Shown: positions 3,797 to 18,181 of the stretch, in pieces | How the letters are laid out: every line of letters starts with the position of its first letter | Numbering within the stretch: the first letter of the stretch is position 1 | IMG/VR virus record: IMGVR_UViG_3300036779_000174 | Coordinates: 1 to 26,022 of that record | Direction: 5' to 3' (one strand) | DNA length: 26,022 bases | Source: a virus | Taxonomy: Duplodnaviria; Caudoviricetes | Made by a program: the position numbers and the translations under genes | Notes under the pieces: model-generated | What the model saw: the letters and a program-made list of their open reading frames with translations, nothing else | What the model was told of the DNA's origin: nothing | The model's database searches: none

Positions 3797-4744
3797 CTAT
3801 CTCTCCCTTTCGACTCTGAAACCCGTGTCGCGCGAGCGCCCGAGATATGAATTCGTGAGCGCCGGGTCCTCGAAGTCTCCTGCGGCGGTCGAGCGGACCT
3901 GCTCGCCCTCGCGCAGCACCGAGATCCCGGCTTTGCCGCCGTCGCGGATCGCGCGCGCGGCGATGTCCTCGAACTGCTCGCCCGCCTCGCGGATCTGCTC
4001 GTCCGATTCGTTCGCCCAGTGCTGGCGCCGCGCTTCGGCCATCCGCAGCGGGATCTCGCCCATGATGAGCGTCCCCACTTTGACGGGGTCGCCGTGCTCG
4101 TCCTTCACGATCACATAGCCTCGCAGGCCCAGCACGCCGATACAGCGTTCGCTGAGAAACTTCGCCGCCATGCCGGGGCTGCCGTACTTCTGGACGGCCT
4201 CTTCCATAGGCTGCGCGAAGATCATGGCGTCCGAGCGGTCCGCTTCGACTTCGACCGTGCGCTGGGGTATCCGCATGATGCGGTCGCGGAATGCCGTTGC
4301 AACTGCGTCCTTGCCGAACCGCGCGATCGCGGCGCGCAGGCCCTTCTGCAGCACAGGGTCCGGGACGGCTTTTTCTTCGCGCAGCAGAATCGCTTCGGCC
4401 GTCGCGTTCGCATAGTCCTCGAGACCGACGTTCTCGATCGAGGCTTTCATGGCAGGGCAGGAAATGAGCAGCGGATCCGGACCGTAGACGACGCGCGTGT
4501 ACGTCGGGATCGAGTCGCCGAACGTCTTGCGGTCCCACTCCTCGTCGAGGAACTGCGCGACATTGTCGGTCGGGCGGTTGGGGTCGGGCTCCGGGTCCTT
4601 CAGGTCGAGCCCGAGGTCGGTCGCCAGCGTCTCGACGGCCTTCTTGTCATCGATGCGCGCCTGTCGGTCGGCGAGGATGCGTTCGTTTGCGTCGCGCGCC
4701 GGGTCGGCCGGCGGCTTGCGTTTATGGCTGCGGGGTTGACTCAT
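3797..4744 (-). CDS. Hypothetical head-module protein
   Basis: 315 aa; ATGA overlap with scaffold gene. Confidence 0.7.
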   Translation of the reverse strand: MSQPRSHKRKPPADPARDANERILADRQARIDDKKAVETLATDLGLDLKDPEPDPNRPTDNVAQFLDEEWDRKTFGDSIPTYTRVVYGPDPLLISCPAMKASIENVGLEDYANATAEAILLREEKAVPDPVLQKGLRAAIARFGKDAVATAFRDRIMRIPQRTVEVEADRSDAMIFAQPMEEAVQKYGSPGMAAKFLSERCIGVLGLRGYVIVKDEHGDPVKVGTLIMGEIPLRMAEARRQHWANESDEQIREAGEQFEDIAARAIRDGGKAGISVLREGEQVRSTAAGDFEDPALTNSYLGRSRDTGFRVERER

Positions 4745-5466
4745 TTAAGACCTCTCATGGCGACGCCGGCCTTCGCGCGTTTCTTGTAGGCTTCGTGGCT
4801 GACGCCCATAGCGTCCGCGATGCGCTTCTGTTCCGGCGTGAGTTCGTCGTCCTCTTCCGGGTCCGGCGCCGGCTGGCGGCCGCCGCCGCCTGCCGACTGC
4901 GCTTTGATGCGGGCGAGCCGCGCCGCTTCTTTCTCTTCTTTGGTCGCTTCGCTGCCGGCAGGCTTGAGTTTTCCCGTGCGCATGAAGTCCAGTTCCGCCT
5001 TCTCCGCAGCCAGTTCCATCGCGACTGCCTGCGGCGTCCCGGCCTTGACCAGATCGCCGTAATGCAGCGCCGTGGCCTTGAAAAACTCGGAGTCTTTCTT
5101 TTTGAGGTCCGGATAGCGGCCGAGCAATTCCTGTTCTTTGGTCAGCGACGCGGCGCGGTTCGCAATGAGCGCTTCGACTTCGTCCTTGCGGACAAAACCG
5201 CGTTTCGACGCGAGCTCGTCGAACCCCTTCGCGCCCTTCGTCGTGATGGCCTCGAGAACATCCGGCTCGTCTTCCTCGGGAACCTCGGCGGCTCTCGGCT
5301 GCGGCGCCGAGGCTTTCGCCTTGTCCGCCCAGTACTGCGCGGTCCGCTGCCCTTCGGCGACTTGTTCCTTCAGTTCGTCGATCTGGCGCTGCAGCGCGGC
5401 CGCATCGACGGCGGGCTCGGCAGCGGGCGGCGCGGCGGAATCGGGAATTTCAGGATCGGGTGTCAT
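4741..5466 (-). CDS. Putative capsid scaffolding protein
   Basis: 241 aa, charged and helical; C-terminal LTPEQKRIADAMGVSHEAYKK motif typical of scaffolds; lies between portal and capsid. Confidence 0.7.
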   Translation of the reverse strand: MTPDPEIPDSAAPPAAEPAVDAAALQRQIDELKEQVAEGQRTAQYWADKAKASAPQPRAAEVPEEDEPDVLEAITTKGAKGFDELASKRGFVRKDEVEALIANRAASLTKEQELLGRYPDLKKKDSEFFKATALHYGDLVKAGTPQAVAMELAAEKAELDFMRTGKLKPAGSEATKEEKEAARLARIKAQSAGGGGRQPAPDPEEDDELTPEQKRIADAMGVSHEAYKKRAKAGVAMRGLK

Positions 5467-5831
5467 AGCTTCAGGACCTCAGCTCCGAATGGGGTGCCGC
5501 GGTAAAGGTCCGCCCGCTTCGCCACATATGGCCGCACACAGCTCGAGCAGAGTACCTGGTACACACCATCGCGGGGAACGACATATAGCCTTACTTCGAC
5601 CGCGCCGTCGCCCTTCGACAGAATTTCGCGCAGCTCGTCGGAGGTCAGTCCGCAGTTCTGGCAGCCGGGCAGCGCGCGACCCGCGAGCAACTCGATCGCG
5701 GCCATGTGCCACTCCAGACAGTAGTCGCAGATCGATTGCGCGGCCGCGGCGCCGTCGCCGCCGAGCTGGTGGACCCGCCACGCCGGCCGGAACCGGCTGC
5801 AATAGTGGCACTTTATCTGGGCGAATTCCAC
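5463..5831 (-). CDS. Zinc-finger hypothetical protein
   Basis: Four CxxC pairs (CHYC, CDYC, CQNC, CSSC); GTG start. Confidence 0.65.
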   Translation of the reverse strand: MEFAQIKCHYCSRFRPAWRVHQLGGDGAAAAQSICDYCLEWHMAAIELLAGRALPGCQNCGLTSDELREILSKGDGAVEVRLYVVPRDGVYQVLCSSCVRPYVAKRADLYRGTPFGAEVLKL

Positions 5832-6167
5832 TTACTTTGACTTGTGCGAAACGGGTTCCGGCTCGGCTTTGCGGGCAGGGTTGCCGGGGTCGCCGGACTC
5901 CGGTTTGCGGCCGGGATCGTTTGGGTCGGGTTTGTGGCCAGGGGCGAGCAGCGGCGGATGCTCGCCGGTCTTGTGCTCGGCTGCTTTGTTGTGCTCGGCC
6001 GGTTTGGGGAGCAGCGCCCGGATTGTGTCGGCGTCTGCGCCCTCCGCCAGCACGGAGTTCGCGCCGACCTGAATGACGACGGCAGGATTGCGGAGATCAA
6101 CGAGACTGATCTGGTCCGGGTTGATCGAGTACCCGGATTCGAGGGAGACGAAATCGCTGAGAGGCAT
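5832..6167 (-). CDS. Hypothetical protein
   Basis: 111 aa; preceded by GTCGAATA motif. Confidence 0.65.
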   Translation of the reverse strand: MPLSDFVSLESGYSINPDQISLVDLRNPAVVIQVGANSVLAEGADADTIRALLPKPAEHNKAAEHKTGEHPPLLAPGHKPDPNDPGRKPESGDPGNPARKAEPEPVSHKSK

Positions 6168-14523: not shown

Positions 14524-14816
14524 TCGCCCTCGACCTCCGATGGAAACAAATCCCGCGCTGTTATCGTGAGCGGTTCGGTCCGGGTCAGCACTTCCTCGAC
14601 CCGCGCTTTCGTCAACTCCGCTATCAAGCGATCGGTCTCAATTGTGTAGATGCCTGTCAGTCTCCGCATCTCCGCGTCGAACTCGCCAAACAGCGCAACT
14701 TCGGAAATTGAGAATCCGCCTTCCGGCTCGAGCTGCCGTTTGAATTTGATGAGCGCGAACTCGAGGGCATCCGCAAGCTGCTCGCCCAAACCGGGGATTT
14801 TGTATTCGAATTTCAT
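14520..14816 (-). CDS. Hypothetical protein
   Basis: 98 aa; ATGA-coupled at both ends. Confidence 0.65.
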   Translation of the reverse strand: MKFEYKIPGLGEQLADALEFALIKFKRQLEPEGGFSISEVALFGEFDAEMRRLTGIYTIETDRLIAELTKARVEEVLTRTEPLTITARDLFPSEVEGE

Positions 14817-15442
14817 CGGCCCCTCACCGCCGCCGCCACCGTTTCCCGCGCCTCAGTGAGCGCCGCCCGCGTCCACGCGAGCGACCGTCCCGTCTCGCGC
14901 GCCGTCGCCGCGAGCGACCGCCCCTCGAGATGCGCCTCGAACACACATCGCTCCGCTTGAGGGAGCGCCCGCACCGCAGCGGAGAGACGCCGGAGGGCCT
15001 GGGCCCGCGCCGCGGCTTCATCCGGCAGCGCGGCCGGATCCCGATCGAGCGCCGGCGGCAGCCAGCCGTTGTTTCCCTCCGCGATCGCCTGCAGCGATAC
15101 GTTCAGCTGTTCGCGGAAGGCCCGCCGTTTCTGCGAGTCGATCATTTCCCCTCGTACGCGCCAATAGGCATACGGCGCGAAACTGCCGATCGCCGGATGG
15201 TAGCTGTTTGCAGCCGATACGAGGCCCACATAGCCCGCCTGCTGCAGGTCCTCGATGTCGATCGAATGCGTGAACAGATTGACCACGCGACGCGCGATCC
15301 GCAGGACCTCGGGCATGCGCTCGCGGATCGCCGCTTCGCGGTGCCAGCGGCGCCAGCTGCCCCGTTTCCCCGCCGCCGATAGCCTTTTTCTTCTAAGTGC
15401 ATGATTCGACTGGCGTCTCTGAAAGACCCATGAATCCCACAA
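14813..15442 (-). CDS. Sigma-70 family factor, FliA/WhiG-like (start uncertain: TTG 15442 or ATG 15316)
   Basis: Region 2 IEDLQQAGYVGLVSAANSY..SFAPYAYWRVRGEMID; region 4 LPQAERCVFEAHLEGRSLAATARETGRS; region 3 short or absent. Confidence 0.85.
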   Translation of the reverse strand: MWDSWVFQRRQSNHALRRKRLSAAGKRGSWRRWHREAAIRERMPEVLRIARRVVNLFTHSIDIEDLQQAGYVGLVSAANSYHPAIGSFAPYAYWRVRGEMIDSQKRRAFREQLNVSLQAIAEGNNGWLPPALDRDPAALPDEAAARAQALRRLSAAVRALPQAERCVFEAHLEGRSLAATARETGRSLAWTRAALTEARETVAAAVRGR

Positions 15443-16127: not shown

Positions 16128-16379
16128 TGCCGAAGCGATTCCGGATATCAATGATCGCTTCTAGGAATGTCGTAGTTCGAGGAACTTGGCCGCGAGTTGG
16201 AGCCGAAGCGATTCCGGATATCAATAATCGCTTCCAGGATGTTGCTCGTCCGAAGCCAAAGACGCCAAGCAAGCCGAAGCGATTCCGGATATCAATGATC
16301 GCTTCCAGTCAGCTTTGGCCCCTGAGAAGGAAATCGAGACAGAGCCGAAGCGATTCCGGATATCAATGATCGCTTCCAG
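16128..16379 (-). CRISPR. Mini CRISPR array: 4 x 37-bp repeats, 3 spacers (36, 34, 34 bp)
   Basis: Plus-strand consensus AGCCGAAGCGATTCCGGATATCAATGATCGCTTCCAG at 16128-16164 (2 mismatches), 16201-16237 (1 mismatch), 16272-16308 and 16343-16379; internal 8-bp stem GAAGCGAT/ATCGCTTC; unique spacers; degeneracy increases leftward, consistent with minus-strand orientation. Confidence 0.93.
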
Positions 16380-16499
16380 GGCTGCGTCCGCAAGCGGAAG
16401 ATATCCCGGACCTTTACCAGCTTTGCCGCGAGCACCCGGCCGGCAAGCGTGCCGGGCCTCGATGCGGCCTGCGCCTGTCGGTGGCGCTAACCCATGATT
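16380..16499 (-). ncRNA. Putative tracrRNA/omegaRNA-like scaffold
   Basis: 120 nt between effector stop and first repeat; partial anti-repeat at 16392-16410 and several GC hairpins, including TCCG-CTTG-CGGA on the minus strand. Confidence 0.55.
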
Positions 16500-17666
16500 C
16501 TACACGTCCGCGAGCGACGGCGCTGTTTCTTCCGGCACCGGGGTGCTCGCGGCTTCAAATGCGATCCGCGCCGCATCGCACTTTTCGGCGATTCGCCCGG
16601 CGAGCACATGCCATGGAAACCCCGGGCAGAATTCATGCCCGCGATCCTCATAGCGCACTTTGGCAAAATGCCTGCGCGCCGCGTACCCGGCCACCATCGC
16701 CGCCGCCAGGTGGGTGAGCGAATCCATGCGGTCGCGGTACTTGCGCGCCATTGCTTCGCGCTTCGCGCCGAACGGCGGGTGGGGCCGCATTTCGGCTTTC
16801 GAGTCATCCGCGAAGCGCTGGAGCCGCCGTGAATGCTCCCGCGACCAGCGGCGCGCCTGATCGCCGTGATAGATCCACAGCCGTTCATCTTTTGCATTCA
16901 GCGCGACGAGCAGCGCATCAGGCGATGTGTGCACGCGGAGCACACCTGTCCGCCCGCGCTCCGCTGCCGTCCGCGGTAGCCATGCGACCATCTTGCACAT
17001 GACGGATTTCCCCTTGCGGTAGAGATCCATCTGGCCCGGCTCGGCCTCGCCCGCCACGATCTGGCGCACTGAGGCGAGCTGCCGCAGGAATTCATGTCCG
17101 CCCCGCAACCGGAACCGGACACGCTGTTCTCCGATGCGCGCCGAGACGATGGGGGAATCGTTTTCCATCTCTACCGACCAGCCCTGGGACGGTACCGGAA
17201 ACGGCGACGGATAGCGATACGTGGGCAGGCTGGCAGTGCACGTCCAGACCACCTCGTAGCGCTTGGCGCGATACTTTTTGCCGATTGCCTGTTCGAGGGC
17301 CGCGCATGTCTGTGACGGCAGCCCGGGAAACCGGCGCCGCGTCTCAGGGTAGAGGTAGACCCGCGGCATCGGCTGCAGCTTGCCTTTGTCGCGTGATCGG
17401 TTGTCCTGCGCATACATCTCGGTCAGCATCCAGTTCGATGCCTGCGTCACTAGCGCCCACTGGACCCGCAGCGCTTTCCCAAATTCGTCCCAGCTCTGAT
17501 CGAGCGGCGAGACGACAGGAATAGAAACCGCGCGCAGGATATAGCGCTCGCGCCAGCAGTCTCCACAGGACAGCACCGCGTCTTTCCGCTTCCATCCGGC
17601 TGGAATGCGGTTGCTGTCGGTTTTCATGATGCGCTCGCGGTTGCACAGGGCGCATTTCAGGGTCAT
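16500..17666 (-). CDS. Nuclease-dead TnpB/Cas12f-like RNA-guided DNA-binding protein
   Basis: 388 aa; N-terminal CxxC..CxxC, SLPTYR motif, degenerate RuvC-I (VLRVHTS), helix KYRDRMDSLTHLAAAMVAGYA, RuvC-II VRYED, FPWHVLAGRIAEKC; ends without the C-terminal Zn finger or RuvC-III; adjacent to the array. Confidence 0.75.
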   Translation of the reverse strand: MTLKCALCNRERIMKTDSNRIPAGWKRKDAVLSCGDCWRERYILRAVSIPVVSPLDQSWDEFGKALRVQWALVTQASNWMLTEMYAQDNRSRDKGKLQPMPRVYLYPETRRRFPGLPSQTCAALEQAIGKKYRAKRYEVVWTCTASLPTYRYPSPFPVPSQGWSVEMENDSPIVSARIGEQRVRFRLRGGHEFLRQLASVRQIVAGEAEPGQMDLYRKGKSVMCKMVAWLPRTAAERGRTGVLRVHTSPDALLVALNAKDERLWIYHGDQARRWSREHSRRLQRFADDSKAEMRPHPPFGAKREAMARKYRDRMDSLTHLAAAMVAGYAARRHFAKVRYEDRGHEFCPGFPWHVLAGRIAEKCDAARIAFEAASTPVPEETAPSLADV

Positions 17667-17671
17667 GCCAA

Positions 17672-18181
17672 TTACCCCTTGACCAGATCGCCGCGGAAGA
17701 ACCGCCAGCGGCCGCCGCGTGTGTGCCGTCCCATGTCCCGCACAGTGACGAGCGGTTTCGCCGACTCGGCCTGGGTCAGCAGCCAGCGCGCCGTCAACCC
17801 GGAGAACGCCTCGGCTTCCTCGAGAGTGAGCCAGGGCTTGACGCGCGGAGTCGGAGCCGCCGGCGGTTGATGCGCGGCGGGCGGCAGAGGCTCGAAGACC
17901 CGCGCAGGCGGCGCCACTGCGACGGGCTGCGCCTTCACGAGCGCGAGCGCGCCGGCGGGATCTTTGATGACCGGATCATACGTTTCGCTCATGCGGTCTT
18001 TGAACGCCGCCACGTCGGCGCGGTCAAATACCGTGGTTTTGCCGTTCGGACCGTTGAAGTATTTCGCGGTCAGGCGACCGCTCGAGATGTAGGTCTCGAC
18101 TGATCTCTTGGACTTCCCGAGGTACTCGCAGACCTCGCGTTTGTTCATGGTTTGAGCAGATGACGGATCGGTTTCAGACAT
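17672..18181 (-). CDS. Xis/MerR-like double-HTH DNA-binding protein (start 18181 or 18148)
   Basis: MNKREVCEYLGKSKRSVETYISSGRL and WLTLEEAEAFSGLTARWL, joined by a Pro/Ala linker; stop is 5 nt from the effector ATG. Confidence 0.8.
   Translation of the reverse strand: MSETDPSSAQTMNKREVCEYLGKSKRSVETYISSGRLTAKYFNGPNGKTTVFDRADVAAFKDRMSETYDPVIKDPAGALALVKAQPVAVAPPARVFEPLPPAAHQPPAAPTPRVKPWLTLEEAEAFSGLTARWLLTQAESAKPLVTVRDMGRHTRGGRWRFFRGDLVKG

Follow-up and report, generated by a model that had tools for sequence, protein, structure and literature searches.

We analyzed a locus borne by a soil phage in the IMG/VR virus record IMGVR_UViG_3300036779_000174 (Duplodnaviria; Caudoviricetes), a linear record with an estimated completeness of 57% that carries capsid, terminase, and integrase genes; its whole stretch of 26,022 nucleotides (nt) is referred to as the window. 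The locus lies on the minus strand and comprises an effector gene encoding 388 amino acids (aa) (positions 16500 to 17666), a guide scaffold resembling a trans-activating or omega RNA (16380 to 16491, with an approximate 5′ boundary), and a clustered regularly interspaced short palindromic repeat (CRISPR) array of four 36-nt direct repeats, with periods of 71, 71, and 73 nt and three unique spacers of 35, 35, and 37 nt. The scaffold abuts repeat 1 (16344 to 16379), which contains an internal hairpin and is followed by spacer 1 (16309 to 16343), repeat 2 (16273 to 16308; identical to repeat 1), spacer 2 (16238 to 16272), repeat 3 (16202 to 16237; one change), spacer 3 (16165 to 16201), and the terminal repeat 4 (16129 to 16164). 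The end of the effector open reading frame (ORF) is separated from repeat 1 by 120 nt, and a co-oriented ORF of the helix-turn-helix (HTH) type lies 5 nt upstream of the effector. The two ORFs and the four-repeat array were present as described in a first-pass annotation made from the sequence alone, and contigs from run X1, from which the window may itself derive, carry the gene and array without a letter of difference.

The AlphaFold2 (AF2) model of the effector reached a predicted local distance difference test score of 94.8, and its best Foldseek match was AsCas12f, with an E value of 3e-19 and a template modeling score of 0.70. VIA Z scores were 27.6 for AsCas12f, 24.3 for the nuclease-dead Cas12f (dCas12f) of Bacteroidota, 17.5 for TnpB, and 12.4 for Cas12m, and PADLOC returned a Cas12f match (E value of 2e-8). 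Pfam gave only OrfB_IS605 at an E value of 0.098, PHROGs and NCBIfam gave no effector match (including none to the NCBIfam TnpB model), a single-sequence search of the PDB returned nothing, and the ESM Atlas returned only generic Cas12f/TnpB neighbors. When a family profile was aligned with OsCas12f, its column 246 coincided with the Asp in the GVD motif and its column 340 with the Glu in MEDL, and the profile stopped at the same C-terminal point as Bacteroidota dCas12f. Structure searches and profile alignment thus agree on the TnpB/Cas12f-like fold proposed at first pass: the WED-REC-RuvC fold of this superfamily is present, and by these models the effector is a Cas12f-fold relative closer to Cas12f than to TnpB.

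The motifs on which the claim of a dead nuclease was based, i.e., VLRVHTS, VRYED, FPWHVLAGRIAEKC, and the N-terminal CxxC..CxxC, were all found in the protein. Residues were then counted over 270 homologs, made up of 120 close homologs and 150 cluster representatives. Not one has Asp at the RuvC-I position, which is occupied by His246 in the window protein, whereas position 340 is mostly Asp, with Glu in only 9 of the 270. Nuclease inactivation therefore appears to be family-wide and Glu340 in the window protein incidental; the retention of Glu340 pointed out earlier is correct as to its alignment with the E of MEDL, but the meaning given to that retention does not survive the count. The C-terminal four-Cys finger is likewise absent from all 270 (three homologs have a single CxxC after W352, and none has two), the tail after W352 has a median length of 37 to 38 aa, and RuvC-III, noted as missing from the window protein, is missing across the family. 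The domain order is an N-terminal Cys4 ribbon (C5, C8, C34, and C37), WED/REC, and a RuvC domain with His246 and Glu340 that ends before the zinc finger and RuvC-III. Two CxxC motifs within the first 70 residues occur in 204 of the 270 homologs; the ribbon that they form in the window protein was hardly probed by the fold search.

With two of the three catalytic residues gone, the effector is very likely non-cutting. The opposite proposal, that cleavage or nicking of DNA persists in a rearranged active site built from Asp341 and further residues, can draw on the retention of Asp341 in 119 of the 120 close homologs, on the Asp that mostly occupies position 340, and on rearranged RuvC sites described for TnpB clades (PMC10691335). 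The lack of a RuvC-I Asp in 270 homologs, the lack of a RuvC-III region, and the persistence, described below, of perfect targets in a host metagenome-assembled genome (MAG) make such an activity quite improbable.

The 120-nt gap downstream of the effector, called structured at first pass, holds a conserved scaffold of about 112 nt that is present in 90 of the 95 loci whose downstream sequence reaches 300 nt or more, including 56 of the 61 loci outside the seed set (duplicates counted in). It was also matched by a covariance model and had no match in Rfam. Folded alone, the gap was not significantly more stable than shuffles (z = −0.81); its structure emerged from covariation across relatives, in which 30 array loci gave five named helices. 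In the first scaffold hairpin, the loop CCGA (16478 to 16481) would join the spacer-side 3′ end of the repeat in a predicted pseudoknot of 4 bp (95.8% of cells paired; two-sided changes in 4 of 4 pairs), and a short anti-repeat, TCCGGG (16405 to 16410), is predicted to pair over 6 bp with repeat nucleotides 1 to 5 and the preceding C (92.2% of cells paired; two-sided changes in 4 of 6 pairs), while the middle of the repeat forms a hairpin of its own with free sequence. The whole structure scored above all 500 shuffles, with 90% pairing compared to 34 to 45% in slid controls. Across 98 internal repeats, the two sets of contact positions varied at 0.8% and 0.3% compared to 2.5% in the loop, which lends modest support to use of the scaffold in trans.

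The distal repeat 4 is changed at its 5′ scaffold contact, and this fits transcription of the array along the minus strand; a scan for promoters and terminators stayed at chance level. Directly past this repeat, the minus-strand segment 15990 to 16128 folds far better than shuffles (z = −3.24) and contains a perfect 13-nt inverted repeat; it is possibly a 3′ end or a regulatory RNA ahead of the packaging genes.

The effector belongs to a large family without a Pfam name, with 247 matches in one search and 938 clusters at 50% identity. Its distribution is sporadic (4 of 401 genomes of one order), and 13 of 16 MAG loci are titled Acidobacteriota; by these titles, Acidobacteriota is the likely host group of the window phage. 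We fetched 121 loci. Of these rows, 79 extend 450 nt or more downstream: an array follows in 30, the scaffold with a single repeat in 45, and neither by profile in 4, which supports the linkage of homologs to arrays; more than half of the relatives thus carry the scaffold with one repeat only, although the array finder requires a 12-nt exact seed, so that degenerate arrays score as single and arrays are undercounted. By origin, 14 of 21 viral, 3 of 14 MAG, and 13 of 44 metagenome rows carry an array. On a quick tree the two forms alternate 17 times, of which at least 10 alternations are forced by strong branches.

Some relatives depart from both layouts. Whole scaffold-plus-repeat copies, each with its own guide as in omega-RNA-like arrays, stand in tandem at L121 811 to 1709, L085 7176 to 7671, L089 5060 to 5548, L045, and L008/L029 and constitute a second multiplexing route within the family. 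Locus L097 has two head-to-head scaffolded arrays (4319 to 5878), and one of its spacers and one of L102 cover a common sequence on opposite strands. At L318 (1 to 560 of G433:C11), a second array with the repeat of locus L032 carries duplicated and variant spacers at a contig end.

Targets were sought for family spacers, with sibling arrays and scaffolds removed ahead of the counts; the unpublished genome G487 underlies none of the conclusions. In the array at L032, 2 of 5 spacers match the host MAG of that locus perfectly (36/36 and 35/35), behind TTT and TTC, respectively. One target sits upstream of an HTH_17 excisionase-like gene, the other at the terminus of an Xre-type HTH gene, and each of the two regions carries an integrase. 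At such sites, with their putative TTN protospacer-adjacent motif (PAM), a cutting effector should cause breaks in the chromosome that carries it. In a comparison of 124 unique family spacers with 2.35 Mb of fetched DNA, three perfect matches were found within the spacers' own phage or contig, flanked by GAC, CGT, and TGC, and reversed-spacer controls gave none at 80%. Three perfect self matches, none with TTN, are what would be expected if PAM-bearing self-targets were selected against.

A further spacer, the first at L113, matches the 3′ end of tRNA-Arg genes, an attachment site (att)-like core, and an att-like copy in its own element; the sites concerned are L113 7280 to 7320 and 8101 to 8135 and L017 9785 to 9817. 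The copy within the element itself is flanked by TTG but mismatched at two positions close to the PAM, and the gene directly upstream of the effector encodes an integrase. Judged from these matches, the spacer could guard an integration site. At L019, array spacer 5 contains a 22-nt palindrome that also occurs just upstream of the phage terminase gene (L019 421 to 444), in an operator-like setting.

Of 58 guides from single-repeat relatives, 7 find a match of 12/14 or better behind TTN within their own locus; over 60 shuffles, the mean was 0.23 and the maximum 2. Each of the seven matches falls on the sense strand of a neighboring gene, namely, a BBP2 porin, a DcaP porin, two TolC-type genes, two TonB-receptor-like genes (at the start codon), and a lyase; the products are mostly of the outer membrane, and the seven cases amount to five gene types rather than seven independent ones. 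Being itself sense sequence, such a guide is unable to base-pair with the mRNA, which leaves DNA as the target. The guide of G003 fits a distant TolC-type paralog better (14 nt behind TTC) than the effector-adjacent copy, which has two mismatches, and G002 shows a weaker version of this pattern. The best match of the G001 guide lacks TTN, and three other single guides have no better paralog at one mismatch. Allele swapping of outer-membrane genes, as suggested by G003, is a lead only.

These matches to cellular genes also bear on a different role for the window locus, in which the same non-cutting binder would be aimed mainly at host genes for surface, defense, or metabolism and would remodel the lysogen in the manner of fliC-associated TldR. 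The porin, TolC-type, TonB-receptor-like, and lyase targets, the paralog preference of G003 and G002, and the integrase in the window all speak for it. The window spacers had no convincing match in two samples of 401 candidate host genomes, however, the array relative with known targets (L032) matches mobile elements, and the paralog pattern fails for three guides and for G001. We consider a predominantly host-directed role unlikely, although not to the degree of the other alternatives.

Further observations concern the single guides. A 13/14, TTC-flanked guide match at L265 (G002:C180) lies in a TolC-like motif with an in-frame stop codon. At L121 677, a single guide matches the effector gene itself (14/16) without TTN. 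Loci L036 and L238, from two genomes, have the first 8 guide bases in common and no target at one mismatch in 15.

Altogether, the sequence comparisons lead us to favor, as the probable explanation, a Cas12f-fold effector that acts with its scaffold and three-spacer array as a non-cutting, RNA-guided DNA binder with a TTN PAM and likely silences genes of competing phages or integrated elements in an Acidobacteriota host. The role against competing elements or in gene regulation proposed at first pass gains support here from the targets of relatives.

Several observations weigh against this explanation. No target was found for spacer 1, and spacers 2 and 3 gave partial matches only (best, 28/35 and 26/37, both without TTN). 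By blastn against INPHARED, the window spacers produced only hits with E values of at least 0.8; 18-nt 5′ seeds gave 0, 4, and 1 matches in IMG/VR, none extending past 25/37; matches in the two samples of 401 genomes, which overlap, were partial (at most 28/35) and lacked TTN; and within the window no TTN-flanked match of at least 11/14 was found for its own spacers. All partial matches of the window spacers were treated as chance. The L030 array has no full-length target in its own MAG or in four others, and of four further relative spacers searched against IMG/VR, two matched only their own arrays, one matched nothing, and one gave 28/35 behind ATG, which was left uncounted. The case for competing elements as targets comes from a single relative (L032) and a single att-like spacer (L113). 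Self matches without the PAM, of which there are three, are equally compatible with a cutter, the MAG of L032 may merge contigs from different cells, and the TTN motif came to light in the very data on which the shuffle test was then run, so that only the two L032 targets are independent. Finally, the pairing model of the scaffold was drawn by eye from the same aligned sequences, and its controls lean its way.

The lack of targets for the window spacers, together with several broken relatives, could also mean that the window phage carries the cassette as a passenger in decay or as a decoy, with no useful target. Decay is hard to square with an intact ORF, intact scaffold contacts, and three near-identical repeats in the window, or with a family of 938 clusters whose guides are conserved between species, and we regard this account as very unlikely.

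We also compared the surroundings of the effector across relatives. The HTH ORF (17672 to 18181, minus strand; 169 aa) is an HTH_17 excisionase-like phage gene (Pfam HTH_17 E value of 1e-10; phrog_66) that had been counted as part of the system. No HTH_17 match occurred in 141 ORFs directly upstream of relatives, and one weak homolog of the window protein lies 1.4 kb from a relative; the gene was rejected as a system partner and judged to lie outside the system. None of the window HTH, sigma, and terminase genes is conserved near relatives. Since the neighbor genes vary, the unit is limited to the gene, scaffold, and repeats, and the weight placed earlier on the position at an early/late junction falls away.

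The sigma gene (14813 to 15442, minus strand) is a short sigma-70-family gene with regions 2 and 4 that lies between small and large terminase-like genes and perhaps encodes a phage late sigma factor. It suggests a different mode of action, in which the effector would activate transcription by recruiting this factor, as dCas12f does with sigmaE. The structural likeness to dCas12f (Z score of 24.3) and a Sigma70_r2/r4 gene 0.7 kb beyond the array are in line with it. Against it, Sigma70_r2 occurs in only 3 of 24 other virus records, each time more than 20 kb from the effector; no homolog of the window sigma gene lies near relatives; the protein stops right after region 4, lacking the C-terminal extension that reportedly binds dCas12f; and a terminase-small-like gene separates it from the effector. 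The sigma gene was thus rejected as a system partner, and recruitment of this factor is highly improbable.

The first-pass annotation had listed no cas1/cas2, transposase, or other cas gene in the window; as to cas1, it is indeed absent from the window record, linear and an estimated 57% complete, and from all 25 virus records. The host genome G433 has Cas7, Cas3, Cas4, and Cas1 beside a 37-copy array elsewhere in the genome; this locus, in which no Cas8 was identified, would be type I-C-like with a TTC PAM.

Set against active Cas12f (AsCas12f, OsCas12f, and SpCas12f1), the window system shares the best structure and profile matches, 36-nt repeats, and a T-rich PAM, here a predicted one; that of AsCas12f is TTR. 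It differs in having no D-E-D triad (His246 in place of D, and no RuvC-III), no C-terminal zinc finger (TNB), and an extra N-terminal ribbon, whereas a helper RNA that is predicted to pair with the repeat beside an adjacent array, as in type V-F, is present at the sequence level. A helper RNA between gene and array has been described for Cas12f (10.64898/2026.03.27.714800); here, the scaffold abuts repeat 1 and is predicted to pair with the repeat over only 5 to 6 plus 4 bp.

The shortened, inactivated RuvC is that of dCas12f. In Bacteroidota, sigmaE-associated dCas12f is reported to activate transcription with a sigmaE bearing a C-terminal extension, to use a 5′-G target-adjacent motif, and mostly to lack arrays (PMC13472631, 10.1101/2025.06.10.658880). 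The window effector resembles the sigmaE-associated protein (PDB 9N9C) in fold (12% identity) and C-terminal stop, and the single-guide RNA downstream of the gene is likewise shared; no tightly linked sigmaE with a C-terminal extension accompanies it. An array-linked dead Cas12f cluster is already in print: Hoffmann 2026 mentions one with a covarying RNA upstream of the CRISPR array and proposed repression, with efflux cassettes among its predicted targets and, as the example, a Chitinophagaceae MAG with a promoter target (PMC13472631). The window system is alike in its shortened, nuclease-dead Cas12f, covarying RNA, array, and proposed repression; what distinguishes it from the published outline are its Acidobacteriota phages and islands, N-terminal Cys4 ribbon, putative TTN PAM, and targets on coding sense strands and mobile elements. 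Five exact motifs of the window family were not found in the Hoffmann table of 1,487 homologs in its form with 400 characters per cell and no alignment.

Non-cutting type V subtypes, i.e., V-M, V-O, and V-P, have already been classified (Makarova 2025, PMC12669027), and a transcription block by array-guided, RuvC-inactivated type V effectors on mobile elements is shown for V-M and predicted for V-O and V-P (PMC12669027, PMC11656645). Cas12m is alike in all three traits, i.e., array guidance, an inactivated RuvC, and residence on mobile elements, but it is larger (about 590 versus 388 aa) and more distant in fold (Z score of 12.4 versus 27.6 for Cas12f), and PADLOC gave no Cas12m profile match among 13 proteins. 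The likeness to V-O and V-P is to their published description only. TldR (10.1101/2023.11.30.569447, Wiegand) is a dead, RNA-guided, prophage-borne repressor, and the fliC-associated form carries a variant of a gene and shuts off that gene's copy in the host, a mode that some single-guide relatives here may share; TldR differs in its origin from TnpB (Z score of 17.5 here versus 27.6 for Cas12f), its lack of arrays, and its promoter targets. Altae-Tran 2023 delineates 40 V-U clades, proposes array-to-omega-RNA reversion, and describes V-U24 as HTH-linked (PMC10691335), a linkage that the window family lacks. The locus would thus work like Cas12m or TldR, yet it belongs to neither, nor to active V-F. 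Literature searches, whose coverage excluded most subscription papers and some supplements, returned no paper on the window's Acidobacteriota family.

For the favored reading of a silencing DNA binder, we propose a natural single guide consisting of the scaffold, repeat 1, and spacer 1, with the subsequent repeat-spacer units being taken up by the scaffold in trans via the contacts of 5 to 6 bp and 4 bp. As judged from relatives, the complex would recognize a TTN PAM with a working guide of about 14 to 16 nt, and once bound it would block transcription. The absence of cas1 from 25 virus records and the Cas1/Cas4 locus in host G433 suggest that new spacers may be supplied in trans by a host adaptation module.

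A broader and more tentative scenario, which we hold to be possible but doubtful as a whole, unites the array and single-repeat forms in one large dead-Cas12f lineage (the 938 clusters) that switches repeatedly between multi-guide and single-guide lives. Under it, a phage-borne silencer would take TTN-selected spacers from host type I adaptation and load them via 5 plus 4 bp; the array form would shut down excision and regulatory genes of co-resident elements; the one-repeat form would silence the resident copy of a co-travelling outer-membrane gene and so swap surface alleles; and the N-terminal Cys4 ribbon would be a lineage-specific silencing component.

If the favored reading is true, the locus would be a natural multiplex CRISPR interference device with an effector of only 388 aa, a simple predicted TTN PAM, and a worked-out guide architecture, and it could serve as a compact DNA-binding chassis. 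It also raises the question of how PAM-correct spacers are still acquired by arrays that lack cas1 and whose repeats are very divergent. For the family, array and single-repeat relatives would represent a living series between array-guided immunity and single-guide regulators, and with the two forms alternating at least 10 times on the tree, the proposed reversion from CRISPR to omega RNA becomes testable.

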